Source: an uncultured bacterium (lineage in GTDB: Bacteria; Patescibacteriota; Minisyncoccia; Phycocordibacterales; PALSA-1337). Taken from it: a stretch of DNA of 55,053 bases. This document shows, piece after piece, positions 8,199 through 45,431 of the stretch. Under the pieces are notes generated by a model that ran no database searches, was not told the DNA's origin, and saw only the letters and a list, made by a program, of their open reading frames with translations. Every line of letters begins with the position of its first letter. The stretch's first letter is position 1. Both the position numbers and the translations under genes were made by a program. The DNA is taken from assembly GCA_903846945.1 (NCBI GenBank), contig CAINCE010000042.1, positions 1-55,053 on the forward strand, given 5' to 3'.

Positions 8199-8285
8199 TT
8201 AGTGATTAGTGGCTAGTTTTTAGTGATTAGTATCCGCCAACCAGAGGAGCGATTTCTAATCACTAGTCACTAACCACTAGCCACT
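8199..8285. repeat. Hairpin element with heptamer-array arms (TAGTGAT/TAGTGGC family) around a GC-rich loop
   Basis: The left arm TTAGTGATTAGTGGCTAGTTTTTAGTGATTAGTA pairs imperfectly with the right arm TAATCACTAGTCACTAACCACTAGCCACT. The 24-nt loop is TCCGCCAACCAGAGGAGCGATTTC. Confidence 0.7.
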
Positions 8286-8341
8286 TGTTACTATTTATCT
8301 ACTTCTAATACTCTCTACTCTACCAAATGACCGATAAAGAA

Positions 8342-8431
8342 CTGATAAAAAATGGTTCAAATTTTGATAAAAAAAGAATGAAGAAATGATAAAAAAAGGT
8401 TCAAATTTTGATAAAATATTTATGAAGGAGA
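8342..8431. repeat. AT-rich tandem ~45-bp motif (GATAAAA...GGTTCAAATTTTGATAAAA...ATGAAGGA), copy set A
   Basis: Two adjacent units. The core AATGATAAAAAAAGGTTCAAATTTTGATAAAATATTTATGAAGGA recurs at 10745-10791 with 2 mismatches. Confidence 0.75.
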
Positions 8432-10692: not shown

Positions 10693-10808
10693 GATAAAAT
10701 CCTGATAAAAAAAGTATGAAGGAATGATAAAATATTAATGAAGGAATGATAAAAAAAGGTTCAAATTTCGATAAAATAGTTATGAAGGAATGATGAAGGA
10801 AATTAATG
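10693..10808. repeat. AT-rich GATAAAA/ATGAAGGA motif array, copy set B
   Basis: Same orientation and the same 47-bp core as 8384-8430. Confidence 0.75.
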
Positions 10809-11386: not shown

Positions 11387-13264
11387 ATGGAAATCCGCAA
11401 CATAGCTATCATCGCACACGTCGACCACGGTAAGACCACTCTTACCGACGCTATCATGACCCAATGTGGTCACGGTGACGAAGGTACCATGGACAGTAAT
11501 GCCCTCGAACAGGAGCGCGGTATCACCATATACGCAAAGAATACATCCGTTAACTACAAAGGTACCAAGATCAACATAGTCGACACCCCAGGCCACGCTG
11601 ACTTCGGTTCAGAAGTTGAGCGAGTGCTCCGTGCCATCGATGCAGTTCTACTCGTCGTCGACGCCCAGGAAGGTCCTATGCCGCAGACTCGCTTCGTCTT
11701 GAAGAAATCCCTTGAACTAGGTCTGAAGCCTATCGTCGTCATCAACAAGATCGACAAGCCAGCAGCCAATCCTGCTCGTGTGCACGACGAAGTCCTCGAG
11801 CTTTTCATGGAACTGGGTGCGCATGATTCTCAGATCGACTTCCCTACTATCTATGCTATCGGTCGCACTGGTGTCGCGAAGAAGTCCCTCACGGACGATT
11901 CGAAAGATCTCACACCACTATTAGATACTATTATTGAGTATGTTCCTGCGGCTAATGCAAAGGGTCTAGGGTTTAGGGTCGAGGGTATAGGAAGCACAAA
12001 GAAATCCGAACAAGGCCCTAAACCCTATACCCTAAACCCTATACCCTCGCTCACTGCGCAAGTATTTAACCTCGGCTATGACAACTTCCTCGGTCGTCTC
12101 GCAGTTTGCCGTATCTATTCTGGTACGATCAGAGATGGTCAAAATATATGGGTAAAGGATGTCAATGGCAAATCATTTACGGGTAAAGTGACGAAACTAT
12201 TTACATTTGAAGGAAAAAAGCGCCTCGAGACAGCGCAAGCTGAGGCGGGTGATATCGTCACCGTTGCTGGTGTTCCAGAAATATTTATTGGCGAAACCAT
12301 CACAGATAACGAGGCCACCGAGCCATTGCCAGCTATCAGTGTAGATGAACCAACCATCTCTCTACAATTCCTCGTAAACAATTCCCCATTTGCTGGAAAA
12401 GAGGGCACTTTCGTCACAGGTAGACAGATCCGCGAGAGACTCGAACGAGAACTAGAGACAAATGTCGGGCTCAAAGTTGATTTCTCCATGAATGAATTTT
12501 TTACCGTTTTTGGCCGAGGTGAACTTCACATCGGCATCTTGCTCGAGAATATGAGACGAGAAGGCTTTGAACTCCAAGTCTCTCAACCAAAGGTCATCAT
12601 CAAAGAAGAAAAAGATGCCGCGGGTAATATTACAAAAACTTTAGAGCCTTTCGAGGAAGTGATCATCGATACACCCCAAGAATTTTCTGGAACCATCATC
12701 GAAACTCTCGGCAAGCGCAAGGGTATCATGTCCAACATGACAACACATGGTAACCAAGTACGCATGGTTTTCGAGATACCAACTCGCGGACTACTAGGTT
12801 ATCGCAATGCATTTACCATCGATACGAAAGGTGAAGGCATCATGTCTAGTCGTGTCATCGGTTTTAGAGACCATGTCGGACTCATCGAGAAGCGCGAAAC
12901 AGGTTCTATGACATCGATGGTTTCTGGCAAGTCATTCGGTTTCTCATTATGGAACCTCCAGGACCGCGGCAGACTATTCATCGTTCCTGCTTCGGATATC
13001 TATGAAGGAATGGTCATCGGTGATACATCAAAGGGTGATGACCTAGAAGTAAACCCATGTAAAGGTAAGCAACTTTCTAACATGCGTTCATCTGGTAAAG
13101 ATGAAGCTCTCACATTGGTTCCACCATTTATCTTGTCGATCGAACGCGGTCTCGAACTCATGCGAGATGATGAGTACCTCGAGATTACTCCGAAAAATAT
13201 CAGACTCCGCAAGAAGTTTTTAACTGAGTTAGATAGAGCTAGGGCGAGGAGGAAGGATTTGTAA
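11387..13264 (+). CDS. typA: Translational GTPase TypA/BipA with an in-frame repeat insertion
   Basis: Motifs: [23 protein letters not shown]-terminal BipA-type region (LVPP...LEITP..IRLRK). Confidence 0.95.
11965..12048. repeat. Heptamer-arm hairpin (TAGGGTN / CCCTAWA) inside the typA reading frame
   Basis: The left arm TCTAGGGTTTAGGGTCGAGGGTATAGG pairs with the right arm CCCTAAACCCTATACCCTAAACCCTATACCCTC. The 24-nt loop is AAGCACAAAGAAATCCGAACAAGG. It is translated as [28 protein letters not shown]. Confidence 0.85.
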
Positions 13265-17173: not shown

Positions 17174-20100
17174 TTATACCCTTCTCAATCCACACCACTC
17201 ACATTTTGGATCATCGCAGAACGACTTCACTATTTCCCCACTCCAAACTGCATCTACGAGTGATCGAATATTGTCTATGACAGACTTTTCGTCCTGTTCG
17301 GTTATCGGCAATGAAACAGTCGGGCATCTACCTTTCGCGTCTGGTGAGACGAATACTAGAGCAGGATGTATCCGCCTACCTTTCCACCTCTTATCATCAC
17401 CAACCAAGATCTTGTAAAAGACTAGCTGACGGAAATAATTACCATCAGAATTTTTCGTTTCACCCTTTATAGCATTTTCTGACATCGCCAATTTGGTTTT
17501 ATAATCAAACACAGTTACTTCATGCCCATTATCTAATATTGCATCCAGTTTCCCGTGAATAGGAATACTGATGATCTTTTCACTCGACTCCGTATCCCCA
17601 ATCGCCCATTTCATAAATCCTAAATCGTAAATCTTAAATCTCTGTATTGATTCCACCCAACTCTCAGTCAACACCGTACTTTTCTCGTCTTTCAGTGAGA
17701 AATGCGTAGAGAGGGCTCTAGCAACGGCGGGCATATCTTCAGCAAGTTCACTCTTTGCTAGCACCTTTTCTCTAGCCGACAAAAGTGATTTACTAAAATA
17801 CGCACTCACACTATCATCCATGATCTTTTGTATCTCTGATATATCTTCAACGACCTTGCTCGAACTCGCGACAGCCGTCCACACCCTAGACAGTGCCTCG
17901 TGCATCGCAGTACCCTTTTCCGCAGCAACAGAAGGTGCTTGAGGCATCTTCAGTATACTCTGATAGATGAACTGATTTGGGCATTTCAAGAAATGATTTA
18001 GCGAAGTCACAGAAAGACCTTTCTTGGTCAATGAATTCTTCGCAATGTCCAGTATCTTTTCATCAACGATCTTCCTTTGTTTTACCCTTTCGTCTACTAT
18101 TGATTCAGCACCATCAGATTTCGAGTCTCTTCTAAAAGACTTATTCTCACCAACGGAGATGGTCATCTGCCCACCTTCTACACCTTCGATGGTTGATGTT
18201 TCCTTCTCATACAACTTCTCCGCACCAAGGCGATCCAAAGTGACCTTCTTTATATGTTTTTCATCCAATTCATCGATAAATCGTAGAGGCGTCAAAGTCT
18301 TACCATCAGACTCTTCTAATGAAGTCATAACGACAGCGTGTTTCCTAGCGCGTGTCAGAGCAACATAGAATAGTCGTCGGACATCCTTAACCTCTGACTC
18401 TGTCGTCCTCTTTTTTGGCAATACGAACGAAGCCCCCTTCGGTCTCCCTATCCACGCTTCCTCAGTCGCATACGGTATGAAGACATAGTCGAACTCGAGA
18501 CCTTTACTACCATGTGCGGTCATAGCTTGGATAGGTAGATCAGGCGCTCCGACAGAAACCTTTACCGTGCGAGTTTCCGCAGATGTGCGATATGCAAGCA
18601 ATCTTGTAATGAGTTCCGCTGGATCAGAGATCCCTCCATCTCGAGCCAATGATTCTGCCAATGACACTATACCTCTCCAAACATTTATATAGATGGGGTC
18701 ACGATCGATAACCTTCGTATATCCAGACCTTTCTCCCGCATGCACGATGAATGCGATGGGACCATGTGACAATAGTGCCGCCCTGATACTAGAGAGTCCT
18801 GGTATCTTCGTATCAAATTCGTCGAATGTGCCACTGCGAAGCTTCTTCACTATCTCCGTCCCCGTAGCAAAGTCGAGTCCCCACATGCCGACAATGATGG
18901 TGTTAGCGACGAGGTCTACCCTTGTCGGATCAACGATGTACTGTAGTAAGTCGAAAAATATCTTACCAACAGGATGATTGAATATATCTATACTCCTCTC
19001 TGAAGAAATCTTTATGCCATGAAATTCACACAATCTGATAATGCGGTCTAGGTCACGATTTCGCCTTACTATTATTGCAACTGTTGGTCTATTATTCGCC
19101 GTCGATGGATTTGCATGACTGCCAATCGGGCGTTCACCATTGAGATGCATAGTATCACTACCCAACACATCATCACTCTCGTCTCCAGTCGCCATCAATC
19201 GTCTCAATCTTTCAATTAATTGAAATTCAATAGCCGTCGTATTCTCACCAGTAATGATCTCGATCGGTTCAGCTCTCTCCTTACTTCCAGATCTCAATCT
19301 GACACGCAGATCTCGATGTTCATCTTCCTCATAATTCTTTTCGATCATACTGAAACTGCCATCCAGAATACTCTGATGAGAACGATAGTTTTGGTCCAAC
19401 TTTATCACCTCCATATTTGGCCATTTCTTTTGAAGTTTAAGGAAATTCTCTACAGACGCACCTTGGAATCTGTAGATGGCTTGTTTCTCATCTCCGACGA
19501 TAAATACATTTGGTGTGTCGAAGAATTCTGCGATGATAGATAGAATGAAGTTCTGTGCATCATTGGTATCCTGATGTTCGTCGACATGGATGTACAGATA
19601 TCTCTCTTGGATCAGTCGCAGGAGCAACTCGTCTTCTCGCAAAGCCAATAGAAGTTCAATTATAAGGTCATTGAAATCCATTCTCTTCGCTTCGCGCTTA
19701 CCTGACTCGTATGCATCATAAATATCCGCAAAAAGTAGCGTCCTTTCGAGTTTTTCGATCTGCTCCTTTGCGTCAGCTTTCAACTGACCTTTGGTAGCGC
19801 CCCGAGTCGATATGGACTCCTCATCTGTTTGAATACGCTCGATTTCTGACCGTGCAAAAGCTCTAACCATCTCTGGTGTCATCGCCTCTCGTTTTGCCTC
19901 ATCTATACCACGGATAATCCCCGAAACATATACATCCGGTTTACCAGCTGGTCGCAAATCTACAAATTTCTGGTCTTCTATTATCTTTCTGATCAATGAT
20001 TCCTGCTCTATATCCGTCATCTGCTTCACCTCATTCAAATGTAAAAAGTGATCTTGATATTCAGATATTATTGACGATGCGAAACTGTGGAATGTGTGGA

Positions 20101-20365
20101 TGCGAACATCATGTGCTCGGTCACCGATGATTCCCTGCAATTTCGTTCTCATCGCTTTCACCCCAGCATCTGTATATGTGATAGCCAGAATGCCATTTGC
20201 AGGTGTATCCGTCAGTTTCAATATGTTCGCGATGCGCAGCGTCAGGATGGTCGTCTTGCCCGTCCCTGGACCAGCTATGACCATGACAGGACCTTCTATA
20301 GTGTCCACTGCCTTTTTCTGGGCGGAGTTAAGGGACGTATATAGTTGTTCGAATGAAACTTGCAT
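17174..20365 (-). CDS. UvrD/PcrA-family helicase fused to a C-terminal PD-(D/E)xK (Cas4/AddB-like, Cys-cluster) nuclease
   Basis: AGPGTGKTT Walker A, DEHQDTN, QNYRS, helicase motif VI VALTRA. C-terminus has KCPNQF...DYK...CDDPKCEWCG. Confidence 0.85.
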   Translation of the reverse strand: MQVSFEQLYTSLNSAQKKAVDTIEGPVMVIAGPGTGKTTILTLRIANILKLTDTPANGILAITYTDAGVKAMRTKLQGIIGDRAHDVRIHTFHSFASSIISEYQDHFLHLNEVKQMTDIEQESLIRKIIEDQKFVDLRPAGKPDVYVSGIIRGIDEAKREAMTPEMVRAFARSEIERIQTDEESISTRGATKGQLKADAKEQIEKLERTLLFADIYDAYESGKREAKRMDFNDLIIELLLALREDELLLRLIQERYLYIHVDEHQDTNDAQNFILSIIAEFFDTPNVFIVGDEKQAIYRFQGASVENFLKLQKKWPNMEVIKLDQNYRSHQSILDGSFSMIEKNYEEDEHRDLRVRLRSGSKERAEPIEIITGENTTAIEFQLIERLRRLMATGDESDDVLGSDTMHLNGERPIGSHANPSTANNRPTVAIIVRRNRDLDRIIRLCEFHGIKISSERSIDIFNHPVGKIFFDLLQYIVDPTRVDLVANTIIVGMWGLDFATGTEIVKKLRSGTFDEFDTKIPGLSSIRAALLSHGPIAFIVHAGERSGYTKVIDRDPIYINVWRGIVSLAESLARDGGISDPAELITRLLAYRTSAETRTVKVSVGAPDLPIQAMTAHGSKGLEFDYVFIPYATEEAWIGRPKGASFVLPKKRTTESEVKDVRRLFYVALTRARKHAVVMTSLEESDGKTLTPLRFIDELDEKHIKKVTLDRLGAEKLYEKETSTIEGVEGGQMTISVGENKSFRRDSKSDGAESIVDERVKQRKIVDEKILDIAKNSLTKKGLSVTSLNHFLKCPNQFIYQSILKMPQAPSVAAEKGTAMHEALSRVWTAVASSSKVVEDISEIQKIMDDSVSAYFSKSLLSAREKVLAKSELAEDMPAVARALSTHFSLKDEKSTVLTESWVESIQRFKIYDLGFMKWAIGDTESSEKIISIPIHGKLDAILDNGHEVTVFDYKTKLAMSENAIKGETKNSDGNYFRQLVFYKILVGDDKRWKGRRIHPALVFVSPDAKGRCPTVSLPITEQDEKSVIDNIRSLVDAVWSGEIVKSFCDDPKCEWCGLRRV
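17613..17640. repeat. Exact (NTAAATC)x4 heptamer array inside the helicase CDS
   Basis: ATAAATC CTAAATC GTAAATC TTAAATC, translated on the minus strand as RFKIYDLGF. Same motif family as 43574-43605. Confidence 0.8.
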
Positions 20366-22731: not shown

Positions 22732-24681
22732 TTACCCCCTAACTTTCTTCCCCACCTCCGCCTTCCTGATAGACAATGCGTGGCATTTCTTGGCGAGTTC
22801 TGCTAAGCGTGTCGCATCACCAGCCTTTTCTGCAACTCGGAGTTCCTGCATCGCATCTATCAATTCTTCATTGACGATATCTAGACCAAAATTAGATATC
22901 AGTTCCTTCATATGTATGTCCCATTTTGCCACATCGCTACCATACATCGCCTCAGCTTCGAATGACATATCACCTATCTGATCTGACACCCTCAGAGCCC
23001 GACCAGCGTATGACTCCCCCGCTGTCTTCTCTACCTCGGCTAGATATTCGGAATATTTCTTCTCATCCTGCTTCTTGATCAAATGTAGTAGGCCGAACAT
23101 ACGGCGTTCCACCAGATCATTATGTTTCTGCTTGTATGTATACGCATCAGACTGCACAGAAGTTGCAGATGCATGTAGATTGCTTCCTGCCGAGACACTA
23201 GAATTATTTGTTGAGCCTTTTGTAAGGCTGGCACTAGTAGCAGTCGGTGCCAAAGCTTCCGTTTCCATCTTTTTCCTAACTGCACGCAGATCATCCCATA
23301 TAGCACCTGCGTCAATATTCGCCTTGTCAGCGATCATCTTTACAAAATAGTCCTGATCTGTTCGACTATCGATACTCGCGAGCAATGGAAACACTCTCTC
23401 ACGCAGCATTCGTGGGATCTTGCGTGGGTCCTTTTCATCTCGGAGTACATTCATCAATTCAAATTCAACAACGGGTTTAGTGGTACGCAATATCTCTTTC
23501 CATATTTCTGGATTTTCCTTCACCAAGTCTGCTGGATCCTTGCCACCAACGATGTCTGCCATCTTCACATCCATACCGAGTGAGAGTGCTATGCCTGCTG
23601 CTCGAAATGCGGCTTTACGACCAGCGTTATCAGAGTCGAAAGCTATCACCACATTTGGAGATAGACGACGGATGAGTCCGAGATTGTTCACTGCACCCGC
23701 TTTATTTACCGACTCATCTGACAGAGCTGTACCTGATGCAGCCACGATATTCTTTACCCCTGCCTGATATGACATGATGAGATCCATCTGACCTTCGACC
23801 ATGATGGAATAATTCATCGTGCGAATAGAAGTCTTCGCCTTGTCCAGTCCGAACAATATAGATGACTTGTCATATAGCAATGTATCTGGGCTGTTTAGAT
23901 ACTTTGCTGACCTCTCGTCCTCCTTCAATATGCGACCCGTGAATGCGACTATACGCCCACTGGAGTCAGAGATAGGAAACATCACGCGACCTCGGAATCG
24001 GTCATAGTAGGATGCTGCGAGAGAATGTGGAGAAAGTTGACCAGAAATGGCTTTCGGACCGAGTGAAGACGAGGAAGAACGAGTTGCTTCGCCAGCAGGC
24101 GAAGACAGCGTACGTTTCGGGGCAACTTCCTCCACATTCCTATCTTTCTTCTTTATGAGCCCCGCCTTTTCAATCACTACCTGACCCCATCCCTTTTTCT
24201 TCAGGTATTCAAATAGATGTGTCCAACCCTCTGGCGCCCAACCTATGCGAAATGCTTCTTTCGTTTCTGGCTTTATGCCACGACCCTTCACATACTCTTG
24301 TGCATCCTTCGAACGGGCATATTGGTCTTCAAAGAATTTTGCCGCGTCCTCCATGATGCGGAACAATTGGTCCCTCTCGCTCTCGTCTTTCTGATTCACT
24401 ACCAGAGGCACGCCCGCTCTTTCAGCGAGCACTTTGAGTGCGCCCTTGAAATCGAGTCCTTCGAACTGCTCGACAAAGTTAAATATGTCCCCTTTCGAAT
24501 TACACCCAAAACAGTAATACCCGCCTCTCTCCGGTGATATGAAAAATGACGCCGACTTCTCGTTGTGAAATGGGCACTTGGCTTTGTATGACTTCCCTGC
24601 ACGGTCGATCTTCACATAGGAACCGATGAGGTCTTCTATGGGTATGCGAGCTTTGATCTCTTCGACAGTGGTTCGTGACAT
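22732..24681 (-). CDS. dnaG: DNA primase with an in-frame inserted element
   Basis: Zinc ribbon CPFHNEKSASF...YYCFGC. TOPRIM EGQMDLI and DSDNAGRKAA. Start at MSRTTVEEIK (24681) by similarity to primase N-termini. Confidence 0.92.
   Translation of the reverse strand: MSRTTVEEIKARIPIEDLIGSYVKIDRAGKSYKAKCPFHNEKSASFFISPERGGYYCFGCNSKGDIFNFVEQFEGLDFKGALKVLAERAGVPLVVNQKDESERDQLFRIMEDAAKFFEDQYARSKDAQEYVKGRGIKPETKEAFRIGWAPEGWTHLFEYLKKKGWGQVVIEKAGLIKKKDRNVEEVAPKRTLSSPAGEATRSSSSSLGPKAISGQLSPHSLAASYYDRFRGRVMFPISDSSGRIVAFTGRILKEDERSAKYLNSPDTLLYDKSSILFGLDKAKTSIRTMNYSIMVEGQMDLIMSYQAGVKNIVAASGTALSDESVNKAGAVNNLGLIRRLSPNVVIAFDSDNAGRKAAFRAAGIALSLGMDVKMADIVGGKDPADLVKENPEIWKEILRTTKPVVEFELMNVLRDEKDPRKIPRMLRERVFPLLASIDSRTDQDYFVKMIADKANIDAGAIWDDLRAVRKKMETEALAPTATSASLTKGSTNNSSVSAGSNLHASATSVQSDAYTYKQKHNDLVERRMFGLLHLIKKQDEKKYSEYLAEVEKTAGESYAGRALRVSDQIGDMSFEAEAMYGSDVAKWDIHMKELISNFGLDIVNEELIDAMQELRVAEKAGDATRLAELAKKCHALSIRKAEVGKKVRG
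24023..24139. repeat. 117-bp GC-rich element with 19-bp terminal inverted repeats, in frame inside dnaG
   Basis: GAATGTGGAGAAAGTTGACC (24023-24042) versus the reverse complement of GGCAACTTCCTCCACATTC (24121-24139). Central hairpin CTTCGCC-AGCA-GGCGAAG. It is 39 codons (NVEEVAPKRT...GQLSPHS). Confidence 0.75.
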
Positions 24682-24726
24682 GTGTGTAGTATAGGGTATT
24701 GAAGGCAAAGTATAAAGGGTGGTGCA

Positions 24727-24745
24727 ATGTGCATAACTTGCACAT
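24727..24745. promoter_or_regulatory. Operator-like palindrome ATGTGCA-N5-TGCACAT (copy 1)
   Basis: Perfect inverted half-sites within the 10-bp-stem hairpin 24724-24748. It lies 46 nt upstream of the dnaG start. Confidence 0.45.
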
Positions 24746-24782
24746 TGCTTTCAAAAGCAACTGTCAAATATTCTTTGACAGT

Positions 24783-24801
24783 ATGTGCAAAATTTGCACA
24801 T
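24783..24801. promoter_or_regulatory. Operator-like palindrome ATGTGCA-N5-TGCACAT (copy 2)
   Basis: Identical half-sites and spacing. Its centre is 56 bp from the centre of copy 1. Confidence 0.45.
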
Positions 24802-24850
24802 ACTGAACTCTGAACTTGTTTCAAAATGGAACAAGTTGCCGTTTCTGACA

Positions 24851-24873
24851 GTTATCCGGAAATTCCGGATAAC
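24851..24873 (-). terminator. Perfect palindrome GTTATCCGGAA-A-TTCCGGATAAC just downstream of rhuM (terminator or protein-binding site)
   Basis: 11-bp arms, 10 nt after the rhuM stop, no T-tract. A near-identical palindrome sits inside rhuM at 25183-25207. Confidence 0.3.
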
Positions 24874-24882
24874 TGAGTATAA

Positions 24883-25885: not shown

Positions 25886-28800
25886 TTACACCTCCCCCAA
25901 CGCGGCATCCCTCTTTGCTGACATAGCATCGATCATCGCTTTCTTCGGAGATCCTTCGAAGCCTGTACCAGCTGGAACGAGGCGTCCGATGATGACATTT
26001 TCCATTAGACCTGTGAGATCATCATCAGCACCACGGACGGCATTAGCGATAAGGACGCGTGTAGTATGCTGGAACGAAGCAGCTGACAAGAAACTCTTAC
26101 GGGTTAGAGAAGTCTCTGTGATACCCATCACCAGCTTCTCAACCTTCGCAGGCTCACCTCCAGCTTCCTTAGCAGCTGCATTCTCTTCGCCGAGCTGTAT
26201 ATCATCGACAACCATGCCATCCGTAAGGTTCGTATTACCACCTTCCAAGACGCGGCGTCGACTGAACATCTGCTTCACGATGAGCTCGATGTGCTTTCGT
26301 GACACAGTCTCACCCTGCAGCTCATAGATCTTTCCAACTTCGGTGATGACATAATCCTTTGCTTTCTCTTCACCACCGTATTCGAAGACCTCATCGATAT
26401 CGGCAGATCCGTCCGTTAAGAGCTGTCCTTTCGTGACTCGATCCCCAACTCTCACTGTAGTAGCACGACGATATGGGAATAGATACTCAACTTCAGAACC
26501 TTTCTTTGCGGAACCCTTGGCCTTGTCCTCAATATCTGGAATAACATAGATCGCCTTTTCCTTACCCATATCTTTGAATCCTGTAACGACTCCATCTACT
26601 GTAGCAACTACGGCTGGATTCTTAGGTCGTCGCTTCTCAAAGACTTCCTCGACGCGAGGCAAACCTTGTGTGATGTCACCACCTAGTCCTGCTGCACCTC
26701 CCTGGTGGAATGTACGCATCGTGAGCTGAGTTCCAGGTTCTCCGATAGCTTGGGCAGCGACCGTTCCTACAGCTTCACCTAGTGCGATGAGAGAGTTCTT
26801 TCCTAGGTCGAGTCCATAACACATCGAACATACTCCACGAACAGTTTTACATGATAGAGGAGATCGAACATGAACATCAGTTATACCAGCCTCCTCGACT
26901 TTCGAAGCATCGGCCTTGGAAAGCAGGTGTCCTTTTTTAAATAGAACTACATCGTCTGCTGTTTTAATGTCTTGAGCAATGATACGACCTCGGATGTTCT
27001 TTGATAGAGGGATATTCATACCAGAGGCTGTCTGCTTGTGAATGACGATGCTGTCCTTGGTTCCACAGTCTTCCTCTGAGACAACGACGTCCTGAGCAAC
27101 CACGAACAACTTACGAGTTAGATATCCAGCTTTGGCAGTGTTTAGAGCCGTATCTGTGAGACCTTTACGAGAACCGTGAGTAGTGATGAAGTATTCGATA
27201 GGAGTCAAACCTTCCTTCGCACAGGATAGAATAGGAAACTCGATCGTCTCTCCAGAAACTGATGAGATGAGACCTTTCATACCTGCCATCTGTGTGATCT
27301 GTGATAGGGATCCGCGAGCACCTGATGTGATCATGTCATAAACGGAACCCATCTTGTCGAGAGATGCGGGAATAGCTTTCTCAACCTCACCCTTGGCTTT
27401 CTGCCAAATCTCGATATGTTTCCTGATGCGCTCTTCCTCTGTGAGGAGTCCTTCGTCAAATTGCTTGGAAACGATATCAGCTGAACGCTTGCCTCGTGCA
27501 ACTATCTCGCCCTTGGCTGCTGGAACCATGATGTCATCGATACCCCATGTAGTTCCTGAAAATGTAGCATAGCTAAATCCAAATGTTTTTATCTTGTCCA
27601 AGATAGGTGCGACATTCACTGCGCCGTGCAATGTGATCATGTCATCGATGATAGCGGCGATACGCTTGCGCCCAATCTCTTCATTGATGAATGGATAGTC
27701 TTCTGGAAGCATGTTGTTAAACAATATACGACCAACAGTTGTCTCGAACATCTGCTCCTGGAGCGCAGCATATTTCATGGTCTTTGGTGCGATCACGCGG
27801 ACCAACTCACGAAGGTCGATATCATCAAAATTGTACGCCAACTCTGCAGCTTGTGGGGACTCGAAGTATTTTAGATCAGTCTTAAAGTCCTTAAAGTCTG
27901 AAAGTCCTCCTGCGCTTGACTTTCGACTTTCGTCCGCCGGCTGGCGGATCGACTTTTCTTTTATTTTCGTCACCCAGAAACAGCCAAGGACGATATCCAA
28001 CATCTTTGCGACGACTGTAGGATCATTGTTACCTGGTTTCAATATGTTCTTGTCAGCCGCCATGATCTCTCGAGCTTCCATCTGTGCTTCATCAGAGAGT
28101 GGGACATGGACTGCCATCTGGTCACCGTCAAAGTCAGCATTAAAGGCTGTACATACTAGTGGGTGAACATGGATAGCATTACCCTCGATCAAAACCGGTT
28201 TGAAAGCTTGGATACCGAGTCTGTGTAGAGTAGGTGCACGGTTTAACAATACATATTTGCCTTTGATGACTTCTTCCAATATCTCCCAAACTTCCTTGGC
28301 ATCATCATCGATAAATCTGTTTGCCCCGCGTATGTTATATGCCAACTCTTTCTTGAGTAGTCCTCCAATGACAAATGGACGGAATAGTTCTAGTGCCATA
28401 TGCTTTGGCAGACCACACTCATCTATCTTCAATTCTGGACCAACGACGATCACGGATCGACCTGAATAGTCGACGCGCTTTCCGAGGAGGTTCTGACGGA
28501 AGAGACCTCTCTTTGATTTCAAACTATCTGAGAGTGACTTGAGTGCTCTCTTCTGGGCGGCGATAGCAGCCGCACCAGCGGATGAACTGTGACGGATAGA
28601 GTTGTCTATGAGAGCGTCTACTGCCTCCTGCAATATTCTTTTTTCATTTCTCAAAATAACTTCTGGAGCATTGATCTCCTTTAGTTTCAATAGGCGGTTG
28701 TTGCGGTTGATGACACGACGATAGAGATCGTTCACATCTGATGTAGCATAACGACCACCATCCAATGCAACCATAGGTCGGATACCTGGTGGGATGACTG

Positions 28801-29638
28801 GGATACGGACCAAGAACATCCATTCTGGACGGACCTTGGCTTTGATCATCTGCTTCACGAGGGAAAGCCTCTTTGCGAGCTTGTCGCTGTCAGCGGAGCT
28901 AGCAACATCATATTCCTTTTCTAGCTCTGTCTGGAGTTTGGCGAGGTCGATCTTCTTCAATAGTTCATAGACGACTTCTGCACCGATACCAGCTTCAAAT
29001 AGTGAACCATATTTCACGGCGTATTTGTGATAAGTTGCTTCATCCATGACAAACCCAGCATTCAGGCTCTCGATCTCTCTTCGTGCATTCAAGACTAGTT
29101 CTTTCAATGCTTCCTTGGTCTTATCATCCTGTGCACTCTTCACCTTACTCTTGAATTCACTATCCAAATCCTTGAGGAATTGAGCTTTCTCGGCTTCATG
29201 AACTTTGGTGACGATGTAACCAGCGAAGTAGACTACCTTCTCGAGATCAGATGTCGTCATGCCTAGAATGAGTCCGATACGAGAAGGAACGCTGCGTAGG
29301 AACCAGATATGAGAAACTGGTGTAGCTAGCTCGATGTGACCCATGCGATCACGGCGAACTATGGAGCGAGTGATCTCCACTCCGCATTTCTCACAGACGA
29401 TACCTTTGTATCTGATACCGCGGTATTTTCCACAATAACATTCGAAGTCGCGGTCTGGTCCAAAGATGCGTTCGTCGAAGAGACCTGATTTCTCACTGCG
29501 CTGTGTGCGGTAGTTGATCGTCTCAGGCTTCGTGACTTCTCCATATGACCACTCGAGGATCTTGTCAGGAGATGCCAATGTGAGTCGCACTAGGTCGAAC
29601 TGTGTAGGATCATTTTGCTTTTTTATTGGTGTTTGCAT
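25886..29638 (-). CDS. rpoC: DNA-directed RNA polymerase subunit beta'
   Basis: NADFDGDQMAVH active site, zinc-binding CxC...CxxC near the N-terminus, conserved trigger-loop and bridge-helix regions. Confidence 0.98.
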   Translation of the reverse strand: MQTPIKKQNDPTQFDLVRLTLASPDKILEWSYGEVTKPETINYRTQRSEKSGLFDERIFGPDRDFECYCGKYRGIRYKGIVCEKCGVEITRSIVRRDRMGHIELATPVSHIWFLRSVPSRIGLILGMTTSDLEKVVYFAGYIVTKVHEAEKAQFLKDLDSEFKSKVKSAQDDKTKEALKELVLNARREIESLNAGFVMDEATYHKYAVKYGSLFEAGIGAEVVYELLKKIDLAKLQTELEKEYDVASSADSDKLAKRLSLVKQMIKAKVRPEWMFLVRIPVIPPGIRPMVALDGGRYATSDVNDLYRRVINRNNRLLKLKEINAPEVILRNEKRILQEAVDALIDNSIRHSSSAGAAAIAAQKRALKSLSDSLKSKRGLFRQNLLGKRVDYSGRSVIVVGPELKIDECGLPKHMALELFRPFVIGGLLKKELAYNIRGANRFIDDDAKEVWEILEEVIKGKYVLLNRAPTLHRLGIQAFKPVLIEGNAIHVHPLVCTAFNADFDGDQMAVHVPLSDEAQMEAREIMAADKNILKPGNNDPTVVAKMLDIVLGCFWVTKIKEKSIRQPADESRKSSAGGLSDFKDFKTDLKYFESPQAAELAYNFDDIDLRELVRVIAPKTMKYAALQEQMFETTVGRILFNNMLPEDYPFINEEIGRKRIAAIIDDMITLHGAVNVAPILDKIKTFGFSYATFSGTTWGIDDIMVPAAKGEIVARGKRSADIVSKQFDEGLLTEEERIRKHIEIWQKAKGEVEKAIPASLDKMGSVYDMITSGARGSLSQITQMAGMKGLISSVSGETIEFPILSCAKEGLTPIEYFITTHGSRKGLTDTALNTAKAGYLTRKLFVVAQDVVVSEEDCGTKDSIVIHKQTASGMNIPLSKNIRGRIIAQDIKTADDVVLFKKGHLLSKADASKVEEAGITDVHVRSPLSCKTVRGVCSMCYGLDLGKNSLIALGEAVGTVAAQAIGEPGTQLTMRTFHQGGAAGLGGDITQGLPRVEEVFEKRRPKNPAVVATVDGVVTGFKDMGKEKAIYVIPDIEDKAKGSAKKGSEVEYLFPYRRATTVRVGDRVTKGQLLTDGSADIDEVFEYGGEEKAKDYVITEVGKIYELQGETVSRKHIELIVKQMFSRRRVLEGGNTNLTDGMVVDDIQLGEENAAAKEAGGEPAKVEKLVMGITETSLTRKSFLSAASFQHTTRVLIANAVRGADDDLTGLMENVIIGRLVPAGTGFEGSPKKAMIDAMSAKRDAALGEV
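27875..27960. repeat. AAAGTC-family hairpin element inside the rpoC reading frame
   Basis: Left arm AGTCTTAAAGTCCTTAAAGTCTGAAAGTCC. Right arm GACTTTCGACTTTCGTC plus GATCGACTTTTC. Inner hairpin CCGCCGG-CTGGCGG. Translated as EKSIRQPADESRKSSAGGLSDFKDFKTDL. Confidence 0.75.
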
Positions 29639-34461: not shown

Positions 34462-34585
34462 GAGATTTACGATTTCCATGCCTGACGGCAGGCAGGAGGA
34501 TTTAAGATTTAAGATTTATGAATCGTCGCAAGCTCACCGAGAAATTGCATCATTCGTAAATATTAAATCTATATTCGTAAATCTT
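34462..34585. repeat. GATTTAN-family composite hairpin in the rpoB 5' region
   Basis: GGATTTAAGATTTAAGATTTATGAATCG pairs imperfectly with CATTCGTAAATATTAAATCTATATTCGTAAATC. There is an outer GATTTACGATTT copy and a small GCCTG-ACGG-CAGGC hairpin. Confidence 0.7.
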
Positions 34586-37472: not shown

Positions 37473-37635
37473 AGAGCCCATCCACCATCTCGTGGTACCC
37501 TACCAGGAAAGCTTTATTTTTAGGCGAAAAACAAGCTGGAGTTCGAGCCATAATGAATTATGGCGAGAACGAAGCGCAGTTTTGTAGCCAAAAATAAGGC
37601 TTTATATGGTAGGGGGAAGATGGTGGATGGGCTCT
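37473..37635. repeat. 163-bp long-hairpin / MITE-like element with an 18-bp perfect terminal inverted repeat
   Basis: AGAGCCCATCCACCATCT (37473-37490) is the exact reverse complement of AGATGGTGGATGGGCTCT (37618-37635). Inner arms pair partially. The apex is GCCATAAT-GAA-TTATGGC. Confidence 0.8.
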
Positions 37636-37706
37636 TAAAGTCTTTAAAGTCCGTAAAGTCATGACTACGACTTTATAGACTTTCCAACTTTATGGACTTT
37701 ATGGAC
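37634..37706. repeat. AAAGTC-family hairpin abutting the radC stop codon
   Basis: CTTAAAGTCTTTAAAGTCCGTAAAGTC / GACTTTATAGACTTTCCAACTTTATGGACTTTATGGAC around an 8-nt centre. Confidence 0.8.
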
Positions 37707-38437
37707 TATTTTATAATACTTACAAATCTATCTTTCGTGATGATGACATGGTCGAGAACAGTGATGCCCAAGATCTTCCCGGCTTGGACCAACTGTTTCG
37801 ATATCTCGACGTCCTGGTCACTAGGAGTAACTTCGCCTGATGGATGGTTGTGTGCCAATACTACCGCGGCGGCGTTGCACTCGATACCAGCGCGAAATAC
37901 TTCTCTAGGATGGATGATATTCGAATTGACTGTACCTATGGATATGACCTCATCTCGGATAATCTTGCTGTGACTATTTAGAAACAGTCCGCGAAGGTGC
38001 TCCTTGGGCAGATTCCTCATATCCTGCAAATAGTTGTATACATCTTCGGCATTTCTGATGGTGGTAAAACCAGACTGATTCTTCTCACCATACCTCCTAG
38101 CTATCTCACCTACGGCCACGATGATGCAGGCCTTGCCTATAGGGATATCCAGGTCACTCGAGAGATGCTCGGGATCAGTCTCAGACAATATGGTCTTTTC
38201 CCCATACTCCTTCATGATCCTGTTGGACAGCTCGATAACGTCTTCCTTGACCGAACCAGTATTCAAGATAACCGCTATAAGCTCACGCATAGTGAGCGAC
38301 TGGGGTCCTTGAGACATGAGTTTTTGTCGAGGCTTTTCTTCACTCGGCAAATCATGGATCGTGATCAGATAATCACGACTACTGGAGCCGTCTAGAAACA
38401 GCGAGTTGTCCAATATTTTGTATGCACTTTTTTGCAT
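37706..38437 (-). CDS. radC: RadC-like JAB/MPN domain protein
   Basis: HNHPSGEVTPSDQD JAMM-type motif. Start set at MQKSAYKIL, because the longer ORF would overlap the pyk 3' end. Confidence 0.85.
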   Translation of the reverse strand: MQKSAYKILDNSLFLDGSSSRDYLITIHDLPSEEKPRQKLMSQGPQSLTMRELIAVILNTGSVKEDVIELSNRIMKEYGEKTILSETDPEHLSSDLDIPIGKACIIVAVGEIARRYGEKNQSGFTTIRNAEDVYNYLQDMRNLPKEHLRGLFLNSHSKIIRDEVISIGTVNSNIIHPREVFRAGIECNAAAVVLAHNHPSGEVTPSDQDVEISKQLVQAGKILGITVLDHVIITKDRFVSIIK

Positions 38438-41829: not shown

Positions 41830-41938
41830 ATTTACGGAGAGAGATATTTTGCTCAGAGAATAGGGAGAGCTGATACCTCAAACCAGTGAATATAGACTAG
41901 CAAAATACGCGGAGAATTGCAAAAAGACTTCCTATTTG

Positions 41939-42020
41939 TGGGCACGGGGAGAGTCGAACTCCCATGGATTACTCCACACGCTCCTGAAGCGTGCGCGGCT
42001 ACCAGTTACGCCACGTGCCC
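41939..42020 (-). tRNA. tRNA-Leu (anticodon CAG), class II with long variable arm
   Basis: Manual cloverleaf: GGGCACG acceptor, anticodon arm CACGC-TTCAGGA-GCGTG, variable arm TGGA-GTAA-TCCA, T-arm GGGAG-TTCGACT-CTCCC. Confidence 0.9.
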
Positions 42021-42165
42021 ATTCCTTACAAGGCGAGGCCTTGTCGGTGTCGGTTAACTATAATTCAATATTTGAAATGCTGCAAAGATGTGTGGATCAA
42101 TATCGGGCATGAATTTAGCGCCGCTGGGAATTTCCCAAACGGCGCTTTAACAAAACATCTTTACC

Positions 42166-42468
42166 TCACTTATTGGAGGTGTCAACCGCATGGTCGACTT
42201 GGACAGACCCATAGGTCTGCCGCAGGAAGGCATCGTGCGGTTTAATGTAGTATTTGTTCCACATGGCCATGCCCTCGCTCAGAAGGACGATGGCGACAAG
42301 TGCAACCAACACCGACCGGAACAATAACCTCCGGTCGAGGTCATTCCTCAACCGCAGCTCCTCCAGCGGCTCACTGGGCAGACGTGGCCGACCACCGGCC
42401 AAGTCATTCATCTGCTCACACTTATTCTTCATAGTTTTTTTCTTTGCGGCTAATACAATTAGCCACAT
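42166..42468 (-). CDS. Hypothetical small single-TM protein in a GC-richer patch
   Basis: 100-aa ORF preceded by TTGACT-17-TATGAT. One TM helix (LLFRSVLVALVAIVLL). Confidence 0.4.
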   Translation of the reverse strand: MWLIVLAAKKKTMKNKCEQMNDLAGGRPRLPSEPLEELRLRNDLDRRLLFRSVLVALVAIVLLSEGMAMWNKYYIKPHDAFLRQTYGSVQVDHAVDTSNK

Positions 42469-42486
42469 TGTTTGTGCACTGTCAAT

Positions 42487-42515
42487 ATCATAGCACTATT
42501 CGACTAGAAAGTCAA
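42487..42515 (-). promoter_or_regulatory. Candidate sigma-70 promoter
   Basis: On the minus strand: TTGACT, 17-nt spacer, TATGAT. It ends 18 nt before the ATG at 42468. Confidence 0.45.
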
Positions 42516-42531
42516 GGGGGACAAATAGAAG

Positions 42532-42558
42532 AGACCGCAGTGGAATGCACTGCGGTCT
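42532..42558 (-). terminator. Intrinsic terminator (11-bp perfect stem)
   Basis: AGACCGCAGTG-GAATG-CACTGCGGTCT, followed on the minus strand by CTTCTATTT. Confidence 0.5.
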
Positions 42559-42575
42559 GATGAGAAGCGAAACAC

Positions 42576-42773
42576 TCAATCGTGGCTACTAGCCTCAGTG
42601 AATTGAGACTCTTGATCACATTCGCTGATGATCGCTAAAAAGTCGGCATTTGGAGTCGACTCGTATATGTAACATTCCCTCCCGTGCATCACATGGACTG
42701 TCCCCGAAACATCCTGTGATCCTTGCGCGCCGGTCTGTGTCTGACCCAGAAATATCTTTACATTTCCGTTCAT
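42576..42773 (-). CDS. Hypothetical 65-aa protein
   Basis: ORF sits between the rplE terminator and the 42532-42558 terminator. No family recognised. Confidence 0.35.
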   Translation of the reverse strand: MNGNVKIFLGQTQTGAQGSQDVSGTVHVMHGRECYIYESTPNADFLAIISECDQESQFTEASSHD

Positions 42774-42882
42774 AATATTTGGGTTTGTCGTTACTGTTGC
42801 ACTACGCTTGTACTACGCTATTACTTTCTGCACTGACGAAATCTGCTAAATGACGCCATCGCAGACCCAGACAACTATACCC

Positions 42883-42923
42883 AAAAAAACATCCTGCGTC
42901 AAAAAATAACTTTTGCGCAGATG
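42883..42923 (-). terminator. Intrinsic terminator ending the ribosomal-protein block after rplE
   Basis: On the minus strand: CATCTGCGCAAAAG-TTAT-TTTTTGACGCAGGATG (two bulges) followed by TTTTTTT. Confidence 0.55.
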
Positions 42924-42939
42924 TTAGTCCCAAAAATAT

Positions 42940-43518
42940 CTATTTCTTTCCTTCTACTATCTCTGCTTTCTTGAGAGGCAATCCCAAGTATTCTAGAAAA
43001 GCTAGAGTGGACTTTTGGTTATCCGAGGTTGTGACGATAGTTATAGCAAAACCAAAAACATCCTTAAGGTCTTCATCTGAAGTCTCGGCAAAGATGGTGT
43101 GCTCTTTGATACCCATAGTATAGTTCCCCATAGCATCGACAGATGTACGAGAGAGCCCACGGAAGTCTTTTGTACGAGGGAGTGAGATGTGGATGAGTCG
43201 ATCTAGAAACTCACACATGCGCTTGCCACGGAGAGTTACCTGATAACCGATAGGGTCACCAACACGAGTCTTGAATGTTGCAATAGCTTTCTTGGTAGCA
43301 CGCACAGCTGGCTTTTGACCAGTGATGCGGGCGAGTCTCTCAGACATGAGCTCAATCTTTTTCTTGTCTTTGACAGATCCGAAACCACTAGAGATAACCA
43401 CCTTGACGAGGCGAGGTGACTGCATCGGGTTCTTCAAATTCAATGGGACTTTCAGGGTCTTGAATGAATCTTTATTTAGTTCGTATGTTGATGTGTATGC
43501 CATAGATTTATTACTCAA
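42940..43518 (-). CDS. rplE: 50S ribosomal protein L5
   Basis: PRLVKVVISSGFG...RGKRMCEFLDRLI...LPRTKDFRGL. Confidence 0.95.
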   Translation of the reverse strand: MSNKSMAYTSTYELNKDSFKTLKVPLNLKNPMQSPRLVKVVISSGFGSVKDKKKIELMSERLARITGQKPAVRATKKAIATFKTRVGDPIGYQVTLRGKRMCEFLDRLIHISLPRTKDFRGLSRTSVDAMGNYTMGIKEHTIFAETSDEDLKDVFGFAITIVTTSDNQKSTLAFLEYLGLPLKKAEIVEGKK

Positions 43519-43521
43519 ATC

Positions 43522-43605
43522 GATTTACGATTTAAGATTTATGATTTAAGAATGGCGCGACTTCTAGGTGACTATTCTTAAATCCTAAATCCTAAATCTT
43601 AAATC
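43522..43605. repeat. Hairpin element: (GATTTAN)x4 arm, 20-nt GC-rich loop, (NTAAATC)x4 arm
   Basis: The 32-nt arms are complementary at 29/32 positions. The loop is GGCGCGACTTCTAGGTGACT. It fills the rplX-rplE spacer. Confidence 0.9.
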
Positions 43606-43607
43606 AT

Positions 43608-43826
43608 TTAACTGGTTTTCTTCGCCTTACTAGCATCGAATGGCATCGCAACTTCGACAGTCTGACCTTTCTGTCCTTCCTTTCGTGCTCTCTCATGCTT
43701 CTTTACGGTATTAATACCTTCGACTACGACTTTATTGATCGCAGGAAAAGCCTTGACAACCTTGCCGGTCTTGCCCTTATCGTCTCCTGAAAGCATCTTG
43801 ATTGTGTCTCCTTTTTTGATATGCAT
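43608..43826 (-). CDS. rplX: 50S ribosomal protein L24 (short form)
   Basis: KOW motif KKGDTIKMLSGDDKGKTGKV. Confidence 0.9.
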   Translation of the reverse strand: MHIKKGDTIKMLSGDDKGKTGKVVKAFPAINKVVVEGINTVKKHERARKEGQKGQTVEVAMPFDASKAKKTS

Positions 43827-43836
43827 TGTAGTTTAG

Positions 43837-43870
43837 TTGAAAGTCTGTAAAGTCTTAAAGTCCATAAAGC
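43837..43870. repeat. AAAGTC-family tandem array (single arm)
   Basis: Sequence is TTGAAAGTC TGTAAAGTC TTAAAGTC CATAAAGC. Confidence 0.8.
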
Positions 43871-43871
43871 A

Positions 43872-44243
43872 CTAGACAATCTCGGAGGCCTTTGAAGCTA
43901 TCGTCTTGAATCCTGCCTCAGCGACTTCACGAGGGATAGGACCAAAGATGCGACCAGCGATCGGCTCTTTCTTGTCCTTTTCGATGATAACTACTGCATT
44001 CTCATCAAATCGGATGTATGAACCATCCTTCCGACGAGTAGGCTTGACCTGACGAACGACGACAGCATGCAGGACATCTTTCTTCTTTACCGCCTTTCGA
44101 GGTTCCGCCTTCTGTACTGACAAGACTACGATTTCACCGATCTCCGCATATCGCTTGCGTGTCGCACCGAGCACCTTGAATATACGACCGACTTTTGCTC
44201 CGGAGTTATCAGCTATTTTTACAATTGTTCTTGGTTGAATCAT
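43872..44243 (-). CDS. rplN: 50S ribosomal protein L14
   Basis: MIQPRTIVKIADNSGAK... Confidence 0.95.
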   Translation of the reverse strand: MIQPRTIVKIADNSGAKVGRIFKVLGATRKRYAEIGEIVVLSVQKAEPRKAVKKKDVLHAVVVRQVKPTRRKDGSYIRFDENAVVIIEKDKKEPIAGRIFGPIPREVAEAGFKTIASKASEIV

Positions 44244-44255
44244 TGAAGTTAGATT

Positions 44256-44329
44256 GAATTATGAAATATGATATATGAATTATGATTTATGGATTTTTCG
44301 TATCTCATATTTCTTATCTCATATCTCAT
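44256..44329. repeat. ATGANNT-family heptamer arms forming an imperfect hairpin
   Basis: ATGAAAT ATGATAT ATGAATT ATGATTT ATGG / CGTATCT CATATTT CTTATCT CATATCT CAT. The right arm ends on the rpsQ stop codon. Confidence 0.7.
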
Positions 44330-44583
44330 GCGATCACTTTGAATGCCTTCATCTTCGATATCGGTCTGCAAGCCTCTACTGTTGCCTTGTCACCGATCTT
44401 CTTTGTATTACCTACATCATGTGCCATGATCCTCGTCCTCTTGGTCATGAACTTGTGGTACTTGGCATGCTTCACATATCTCTCGACGACGACGACTGAT
44501 GTGTCCTTCATCTTGTCAGATACAACAACACCGGAAAAAGTCTGGCGTTTTGGTTCTAGTTGAGTTGTTTGTGTTGTGGTCAT
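44326..44583 (-). CDS. rpsQ: 30S ribosomal protein S17
   Basis: FSGVVVSDKMKDTSVVVVERYVKHAKYHK. Confidence 0.93.
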   Translation of the reverse strand: MTTTQTTQLEPKRQTFSGVVVSDKMKDTSVVVVERYVKHAKYHKFMTKRTRIMAHDVGNTKKIGDKATVEACRPISKMKAFKVIA

Positions 44584-44629
44584 GTGATGGTTGATACTAC
44601 TTGAAATCTTCTGAAATGTCCAGTTTCTG

Positions 44630-44709
44630 GAGCTAAGAGCTTGGAGGTAAGAGATAAGATTTTGAATATATGAGTTTTGCGATTAATCTTATCTCTAAGC
44701 TCTTAACTC
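44630..44709. repeat. GAGNTAA-family heptamer arms forming a hairpin
   Basis: GAGCTAAGAGCTTGGAGGTAAGAGATAAGATT versus the reverse complement of AATCTTATCTCTAAGCTCTTAACTC. The right arm overlaps the last codons of rpmC. Confidence 0.8.
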
Positions 44710-44891: not shown

Positions 44892-44900
44892 GGGATATTA

Positions 44901-45421: not shown

Positions 45422-45431
45422 GGTAGTAATT

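Follow-up and report, generated by a model that had tools for sequence, protein, structure and literature searches.

Rickettsia palindromic elements (RPEs) are ~150 bp in length, fall into ten families and have many integrations in unrelated genes, mostly in frame and with a conserved encoded peptide (PMC10969869), and in REPINs, which are doublets of repetitive extragenic palindromic (REP) sequences forming hairpins, compensatory changes keep the pairing without a host function (PMC3116915). That surface loops tolerate selfish palindromes inserted in frame is already an established general principle. Heterocystous cyanobacteria reportedly contain heptamer arrays termed short tandemly repeated repetitive sequences (STRRs) as well as nested small dispersed repeats, accounts of which are attributed to Mazel et al. 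in 1990 and Elhai et al. in 2008. The DNA considered here is a 55,053-nucleotide (nt) stretch, termed the window and used for the numbering of all coordinates, in which typA (bipA; 11387-13264, + strand), the gene for a translational GTPase of 625 amino acids (aa), carries in frame a small hairpin element with arms composed of inverted tandem arrays of a 7-nt unit. The TypA matches place the host in Candidatus Taylorbacteria / Paceibacterota, i.e. in the candidate phyla radiation (CPR). A sequence-only reading of this DNA had proposed a CPR-type host, in agreement with these matches, and an in-frame palindromic element paralleling those of Rickettsia, which is supported by the hairpin, its arrays and a copy in dnaG lying in the same frame. 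Related DNA loci are given L-numbers and the proteins of relatives P-numbers, the related loci together comprising 1.17 Mb of Paceibacteria DNA.

The likeness to RPEs consists of a short palindrome able to form a long hairpin (87 nt with 31-nt arms here and about 100-150 bp for RPEs), placement in frame in unrelated housekeeping genes where it is read as an extra fold-compatible peptide (presumably so here), additional occurrence in intergenic DNA and the absence of an encoded transposase. The differences lie in the host, which is a member of the CPR/Paceibacteria whereas RPEs occur in Alphaproteobacteria, in the arms, which are tandem 7-nt arrays in place of the unique conserved sequence of RPEs, and in the copy number of the family, which appears low. 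In addition, several unrelated hairpin families replace each other here at one codon-level site, even within a species, and we know of no report of such replacement for RPEs. By analogy the element would work like an RPE, but it is not filed as a member of that group as the host phylum differs, the comparison is one of architecture and not of sequence, and the copy number appears low; sequence homology to RPE-1 to RPE-10 is unlikely because the host belongs to the CPR. The arrays also resemble STRRs in being dispersed tandem heptanucleotides with several unit families per genome, whereas STRRs are described as direct and intergenic and the arrays here form inverted pairs that fold into hairpins, some of them in coding frame, in an unrelated host phylum. 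Hairpin repeats tolerated inside coding sequence are a further feature in common with ERIC, BOX and Correia-type elements and with the mitochondrial GC-rich clusters and "byp" elements, although the ribosome passes over mitochondrial byps, for which an open frame is unnecessary, whereas here the frame is open in every allele tabulated. [quoted passage not shown]

The TypA protein is 96% identical to the best of the 8000 database matches listed, and the match to the BipA structure of PDB code 8ewh (E = 5.9e-174) spans residues 3-622 as two blocks. PF00009, PF03144, PF00679 and PF21018 are among the Pfam families precomputed for the TypA matches, and the GTP_EFTU, domain II, EFG_C and BipA_C domains combined with full-length likeness to solved BipA place the protein in the TypA/BipA family. 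Comparison with the solved BipA structures shows residues 3-190 corresponding to BipA residues 5-198 and residues 222-622 to BipA residues 205-602, leaving 31 residues where the G domain meets domain II compared with six in BipA, close to the 32 and ~7 of the sequence-only reading. That reading also called typA essential, which is not borne out, as E. coli survives without bipA/typA, its null mutants showing cold sensitivity. The length of the site in relatives, taken as the number of residues between VPxAN and QVFNL, was scorable in 117 of the 120 best database relatives. Of these 117, 80 have a site of 9 or 11 residues, compared with 34 for the window allele; the presence/absence polymorphism for which a comparison of orthologs had been suggested is thus found. 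Protein alignment, site lengths in relatives and extraction from each locus define this hypervariable linker segment as the 34 codons (basal length 9-11) that start after VPAAN, at 11957-12058 (+ strand).

An AlphaFold2 model of TypA derives from a shallow 30-sequence alignment and is poor overall, with a mean predicted local distance difference test score (pLDDT) of 52.8, and it was used for local contrast alone. Residues 193-218 have a pLDDT of <50 without secondary structure, in contrast to values of 85 for the G-domain helix 176-185 and 79 for the first strand of domain II on either side. The low local pLDDT is weak evidence, compatible with a disordered linker extension. Further small lineage-specific indel sites occur in TypA at alignment columns 470-485 and 421-433, examples being KRANGEIITASSDSAKSGDD in P0014, P0016 and P0020 and PADTTIEG in P0027.

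The hairpin within the linker segment has inverted arms at 11961-11991 and 12017-12047 of 31 nt each, which are 87% complementary and separated by 25 nt in an inverted-repeat search, making the arms slightly longer than the ~25-bp stem (three mismatches, 24-nt loop) initially proposed. Repeat searches and a frame table resolve the 5' arm (+ strand) into the units AGGGTCT, AGGGTTT, AGGGTCG, AGGGTAT and a partial AGG, and the 3' arm (+ strand) into an inverted array of CCTAAA, CCCTATA, CCCTAAA, CCCTATA and CCCT. The unit families are written as the consensus AGGGTNT (5') and CCCTAWA (3'). Both arms have a period of 7 in Tandem Repeats Finder (AGGGTCT x4.4 and CCCTAAA x4.6), with the 3' arm forming a perfect 14-nt doublet, CCCTAAACCCTATA x2.3. 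The loop at 11992-12016 (+ strand), defined by the inverted-repeat search and folding, is non-repetitive and encodes about STKKSEQG. The motif TAGGGTNTAGGGT, allowing ≤1 mismatch, occurs nine times in the window compared with 0.11 expected, seven of the nine being inside the typA hairpin. The calculated RNA fold of 11957-12052 is -45.2 kcal/mol compared with -23.6 +/- 3.2 for shuffled sequences (z = -6.8, none of 200 as good), the DNA fold of the same region is -23.5 kcal/mol (z = -6.5), and the hairpin region reaches -50.4 in a sliding 120-nt fold scan for which the window mean is -22.9 (sd 7.1). The hairpin, the arrays and the in-frame position are confirmed as real.

Two other identities were considered for the hairpin. 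CCCTAAA is the Arabidopsis-type telomere unit, and contamination with plant-type telomere is ruled out as the arrays are short, inverted and in frame and alternate with CCCTATA; it is also contradicted by recurrence at the same codon in independent CPR assemblies. No Rfam family matches the hairpin, a scan of the window at the gathering threshold giving tRNA alone, and the Rfam scans gave no match of a group I or II intron model to the insert. A known structured RNA or ribozyme is not indicated by E-value scans of 1900-2150 and 11900-12110, in which the sub-threshold matches are miRNA-precursor-like and represent generic hairpins.

A six-frame check bears out the reading that the typA frame is free of stop codons across the segment and that the downstream frame is kept, the other five frames having 1-4 stops each. 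TAG passes through all three phases of the array because the unit is 7 nt long. The units of the 5' arm for which the first triplet is in phase begin with AAG (11960) and GAG (11981) in place of the consensus TAG, which in this phase would act as a stop codon, whereas the out-of-phase units starting at 11967, 11974 and 11988 retain TAG. In the 3' arm the in-phase TAN is TAT (12026) and the out-of-phase triplets are TAA (12019 and 12033). The CG-versus-AT mismatch in the stem is precisely the change that removes an in-frame TAG, and the open frame is maintained at the cost of pairing. The TCGAG variant responsible is also carried by the homologous L081 hairpin in typA and by the L169 copy in dnaG, and is therefore a property of the element family and not a recent local fix. 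All 12 tabulated typA alleles are multiples of 3 and open in the gene frame, compared with 15 open frames among the 60 alternatives, and further typA alleles extracted beyond these 12 read through too. The alleles being in frame and open, the segment is argued to be translated and not spliced or bypassed, and the insert is probably present in the TypA protein. The stops that heptamers starting with TAA or TAG place in all frames at a period of 7 were not counted as evidence, as stops are often to be expected in AT-rich 7-mers.

In related Taylorbacteria the same typA site is filled by long inserts (28-63 aa) that are in frame and mutually unrelated in sequence. Strong hairpins of at least eight unrelated kinds (-28 to -86 kcal/mol) are found at the site among L001 (-64.6 kcal/mol), L003 (-58.6), L004 (-62.4), L005 (-85.8), L007, L008 (-79.1), L011 (-74.8), L015 (-67.7), L122 (-48.5), L165 (-55.7) and L084. 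The long alleles do not share a homologous segment lacking a palindrome, being instead strong hairpins of unrelated sequence with the exception of L006 (28 aa, -11.9 kcal/mol), which was left out of the count of hairpin types. A ~65-nt sequence, termed the core, is common to L001, L004, L008, L011, L165 and in part L084, surrounded by long outer stems that are lineage-specific, and at the typA site it has the + orientation in L001 and the - orientation in L004, L008, L011 and L165. In four core alleles, 28 of 43 stem pairs have changes on both sides with pairing retained. The typA inserts of L015 and L168 are of another type, GTCATTCCCGC...GCGGGAATGAC (peptides IPAKAGIQ and RGND), which is present elsewhere in those loci too. 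Several typA alleles share a stem base in which the first codons are xxG (AGGT) and are matched by ...ACC at the 3' end.

The distribution of these inserts was compared with a neighbor-joining tree of TypA calculated with the insert site masked, and the insert types do not track the tree. In the window clade (P0001-P0010) all 11 members have an enlarged site of 15-54 aa and none has the basal 9-11 aa. L003 and L081 are 98-99% identical in typA, and their identity on either flank is 96-96.6% for 3.5-4.2 kb, yet the two inserts are unrelated (162 compared with 102 nt of site sequence), the alignment breaking exactly at the site with no common remnant detected. The window and L084 are likewise 93-98% identical in typA, yet their inserts are unrelated, and the heptamer hairpin is common to the lineages of the window and of L081, which are more distant from each other. 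Read most simply, the heptamer hairpin would be the older allele and would have been replaced twice. Shortened alleles are also seen and are still in frame, with L166 being L004 minus an internal 42 nt, L167 retaining the last 49 nt of the L001 insert after a 72-nt loss, and dnaG of L169 keeping a single arm. Identical alleles recur in independent samples (L001 and L088; L084 and L085). As judged from these alignments, the typA linker is a recurrent hot spot at which hairpins replace one another, polymorphic between contigs that are 96-99% identical. The insertion described at the outset is real, but it is neither single at this linker nor alone in the window, where other genes carry in-frame hairpins too.

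Arrays of the form (AGGGTNN)x3 occur in three places in the 1.17 Mb, namely typA of the window, typA of L081-L083, L086 and L087, and dnaG of L169. The L081-type hairpin has the same length and typA position as that of the window, in surrounding typA DNA that is 81-82% identical, but is weaker (-33.5 compared with -46.1 kcal/mol), and its protein (P0002) is encoded on 16 contigs from ENA, NCBI and JGI assemblies. The L169 dnaG copy, AGGGTCTAGGGGATAGGGTCGAGGGTATA, is one solo arm that is about 27/30 identical to the 5' arm of the window typA with the TCGAG variant included, and it lies in the same reading frame, encoding GLGDRVEGI compared with GLGFRVEGI in typA. The family is thus represented by one full copy in 55 kb, the L081 typA homologue and this solo arm with the same GLGxRVEGI peptide, so that the proposal of exactly a repeat element stands for the architecture and for one copy across genomes, whereas a repeated family is not evident within the 55 kb. 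When the encoded insert peptide and its dnaG variant were joined as the query of a protein search, which does not reach non-coding DNA, three word-sharing candidates were obtained, of which none is significant. Sequence comparison indicates that the AGGGTNT element is dispersed between loci and rare, at least in coding sequence. DnaG of L169 (P0128; 491-3571 of that locus, 1026 aa) is longer by about 400 aa and has a faint LAGLIDADG match besides the solo heptamer arm, which suggests an intein.

The core family is also present in two other genes of the window, located by the folding scan and family comparison. One hairpin (1971-2090, - strand, -72.4 kcal/mol per 120 nt) lies in frame in mnmA (open reading frame (ORF) 1133-2515) and the other (24021-24140, - strand, -52 kcal/mol per 120 nt) lies in frame in dnaG (ORF 22732-24708), each splitting a Pfam domain in two (tRNA_Me_trans in mnmA). 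Both have the ~65-nt core in common with the typA inserts of L001, L004, L008, L011 and L165. No Rfam family matches the core hairpin, which resembles a three-way junction where one sub-hairpin is conserved and another covaries. Relatives also show hypervariability at the DnaG site that lies between AGLI and YYDRF. Its basal length of 7-9 aa extends up to 57 aa, and its families (core, with the peptide SPSPSLGPK; IPAKAGIQ/RGND; AGGGTNT array) are those found at typA.

The explanation that we consider probable is a non-autonomous hairpin element of MITE/RPE-like character, mobilized in trans, surviving in genes solely where a permissive loop receives it in the one frame that is open, translated into disordered linker and decaying by in-frame deletion. 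A small palindromic DNA element with arms of inverted tandem 7-nt arrays would have been inserted, by transposition or copying, in the short solvent-facing linker between the TypA G domain and domain II, and would have persisted there because its orientation and phase offer the one stop-free frame of six. Ribosomes would read through, adding about 23-25 residues of probably disordered linker. The linker would be one of a few permissive sites, possibly a preferred target, and several hairpin families would insert there repeatedly, replace each other and decay by in-frame deletion, giving lineage-specific linker peptides, while the arms may grow by slippage and pairing may be kept by intra-hairpin templated repair or by selection for mobility. 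The insert presumably serves no host role, no evidence of such service being seen. As in MITEs, inverted repeats are present at the ends of a small element without its own coding capacity, and MITEs and REPINs are likewise small, non-autonomous, dispersed hairpin-forming inverted repeats with compensatory changes. They differ in that no target-site duplication, GTAG/CGTC-type REP head, REP-associated tyrosine transposase (RAYT) or parent insertion sequence is found here in the window, and REPINs in particular are extragenic with REP sequences of 20-40 nt, whereas the hairpins here lie in frame in genes and have heptamer arrays as arms, internally repetitive with a period of 7 or 9.

Several of these points, with others, weigh against this explanation. 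No target-site duplication was found and there is no closely related empty site that defines the ends; an 18-nt direct repeat of 72% identity flanks the insert, but it lies within conserved coding sequence and is probably due to chance. No terminal motif in common with an insertion sequence was found, and Pfam and NCBIfam searches of about 40 ORFs gave no candidate transposase or parent insertion sequence with matching ends in the 55-kb window and, for Pfam, no Y1_Tnp or RAYT match. A weak DDE/rve integrase match, IS481-like and below the curated Pfam/NCBIfam cut-offs, is found in an ORF at the window edge (53752-55020, + strand), with neither heptamer arrays in its upstream flank nor any connection to the hairpins. 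The AGGGTNT family is low in copy number, a single full copy being present in 55 kb and no sites other than those in typA and dnaG in the 1.17 Mb. Recurrence at one narrow site together with the "xxG ... ACC" stem base may mean a single old insertion with its interior turning over, and the 28 of 43 double-sided pair changes may reflect selection on structure and not selfish maintenance. Translation of the insert is likewise argued from the reading frame. A further possibility, which we regard as rather unlikely, is that an existing hairpin is itself a landing pad at which a hairpin-directed process swaps one hairpin for another. Such a process may depend on a transposase that acts on single strands, like those of IS200/IS605 or RAYT, or on a switch of template between hairpins at stalled forks, and the heptamer arrays may be multi-site recognition ends. 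If true, linker peptides at fixed sites in conserved proteins (typA, dnaG and others) would be exchanged in frame like cassettes throughout the Paceibacteria, and ultra-small genomes would have a way of diversifying protein linkers that has not been described before.

Growth in place is the main alternative to a mobile element but an unlikely one, although both accounts may be partly true. A seeded palindrome would extend by 7-nt slippage, template switching (quasi-palindrome correction) would keep the arms complementary, and recombination, either of one arm with the other or with other hairpins, would exchange, invert or delete the interior, the typA diversity representing rapid turnover of one old insertion. 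The enlarged site in 11 of 11 window-clade members with no basal length, the stem base common to many alleles (xxG, ...AGGT / ...ACC), the double-sided changes and the presence of the core at one site in either orientation, which inversion between the inverted arms would produce, are all consistent with this account, and the (AGCCACT)x16.6 array at the contig end shows that arrays do expand. It is opposed by the near-identical arm, including variant units, in different genes of different genomes (typA of the window and dnaG of L169), by the core and RGND-type sequences being found in typA, dnaG, mnmA and intergenic DNA, and by the inserts of L003 and L081 having no detectable common remnant. 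The presence of the same sequences in several loci requires copying between loci, and growth in place alone is therefore insufficient. Selection for an RNA or DNA structure, such as a translational pause that helps the protein fold during synthesis, an element for RNase action or mRNA stability, or a signal for protein binding or DNA uptake, is improbable; in such a case the sequence could vary freely while pairing is preserved. Nearly all long alleles do pair strongly despite unrelated sequences (L006 being the exception), covariation extends to 28 of 43 pairs, the insert position is a domain boundary, and a ComEC and a type IV pilin-like protein encoded in the genome make DNA uptake plausible. 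Against this, 80 of 117 relatives have no hairpin at the site, one arm has been lost in L167, L166 and L169 with the gene intact, the homologous L081 hairpin is considerably weaker, in mnmA and dnaG the inserts break into Pfam domains instead of lying between them, and no Rfam family matches; the covariation is also seen in mobile REPIN hairpins without a host function (PMC3116915).

Two remaining accounts would remove the segment from the protein or from the genome. Its absence from TypA through an intron, an intein or translational bypass of the T4 gene 60 or mitochondrial byp type is very improbable. A stable hairpin at the start of the skipped region is typical of programmed bypassing, and this is the one point found in its favor. 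All 12 tabulated alleles are in frame and stop-free with 15 of 60 other frames open, the stem is mismatched exactly where perfect pairing would create an in-frame stop, the deletion derivatives of 42 and 72 nt are in frame, and the segment, at about 25-30 aa, falls well below the size of an intein and matches no group I/II intron model. That the hairpin is an assembly or amplification artifact, i.e. a fold-back chimera in a metagenome contig, is hardly credible. The exact window allele is seen in the window alone, repeats can be joined wrongly in metagenome assemblies and a repeat array forms the start of the contig, but a homologous hairpin is present at the same codon in independent ENA, NCBI and JGI assemblies (P0002, 16 contigs; L086 and L087), the ORF is intact and other alleles recur in independent samples.

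Hairpins with array arms are not confined to typA. About nine are found in the window, with 7- or 9-nt units and mostly intergenic positions, and the unit families include AGCCACT, GATTTAN, AAAGTCNNN and others. A candidate insert with 9-nt/7-nt units (CTTAAAGTC ... GACTTTC) lies in frame in rpoC (27881-27932, - strand; ORF 25886-29638), where the peptide ...GGLSDFKDFKTDLKYF... falls in a variable stretch of β', and the AAAGTC unit family of this hairpin is also present in the spacers 37634-37707, 43840-43869, 44905-44935 and 46154-46253. A solo TAAATCN x4 array read as FKIYDLGF lies in frame at an indel-variable site of an addA-like helicase gene (17614-17641, - strand; ORF 17174-20365) and is 26/27 identical by manual count to the intergenic arm 43579-43605. 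At this site L167 has a 25-aa gap and L081 a different sequence, and a comparison of three close relatives reveals at least four sites in the helicase that vary by indels. The best intergenic array-armed hairpin, found by repeat searches at 43521-43605, is composed of GATTTAN x4, a loop and NTAAATC x4, with 32-nt arms that are 91% complementary. Other intergenic array-armed hairpins are located at 8200-8293, 34499-34570, 37634-37707, 44255-44329, 44630-44711 and 46154-46253.

The contig start (1-116) is a perfect (AGCCACT)x16.6 array, inside which the assembly probably broke; heptamer arrays can therefore grow long. The AGCCACT unit occurs again at 2507-2524, beside a perfect GC-rich hairpin at ~2531-2558, and in 8256-8293, the 3' arm of the 8200-8293 hairpin. 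Ribosomal protein genes are tightly packed in most bacteria, and in the ribosomal protein operon at 43500-46700 (L5, L14, L16, S3, L22 and S19) nearly all spacers contain a 7-, 8- or 9-nt tandem array or an array-armed hairpin. Across the 1.17 Mb of Paceibacteria loci a period of 7 is the commonest, with 48 arrays compared with 19 of period 6 and 15 of period 9 (period ≥5 nt and ≥2.8 copies), which suggests heptamer arrays are a general feature of the Paceibacteria group. This period histogram was used in place of the counts from two quick array-hairpin detectors, which gave 0 and 7 matches and missed known cases. Related 22-nt tandem repeats occupy the intergenic regions 8343-8416 and 10703-10758 (TGATAAAAAAAGGTTCAAATTT x3.4 and TGATAAAAAAAGAATGAAGGAA x2.5), one upstream of a Sod-like gene and one between comEC and typA, and may be regulatory. 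The spacer between dnaG and a RhuM-family gene (24721-24880) has four near-perfect short hairpins in a row, of which the pair ATGTGCATAACTTGCACAT / ATGTGCAAAATTTGCACAT resembles a repeated operator-like palindrome. The region 41870-42940 is ~1 kb without an ORF of ≥110 aa, contains several strong local hairpins and adjoins tRNA-Ile and tRNA-Leu, both identified by ARAGORN and tRNA-Ile alone at the Rfam gathering threshold.

The genomes of CPR/Patescibacteria are small and usually regarded as streamlined, and here hairpin DNA that is probably selfish lies inside genes of core information processing, namely typA, dnaG and mnmA, with rpoC as a candidate, where it would alter protein sequence. The phenomenon of protein-coding palindromes, known mainly from Rickettsia, would be extended to a very different lineage. 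The notable part is the replacement at a hot spot combined with translatable heptamer arrays, which adds two features, namely 7-nt array arms that are translatable only through specific variant units and the replacement of hairpin by hairpin at one site. Such sites inflate protein-length variation and may mislead orthology, alignment and gene calling in metagenome-assembled genomes of the CPR, and they mark insertion-tolerant loops in TypA and DnaG.

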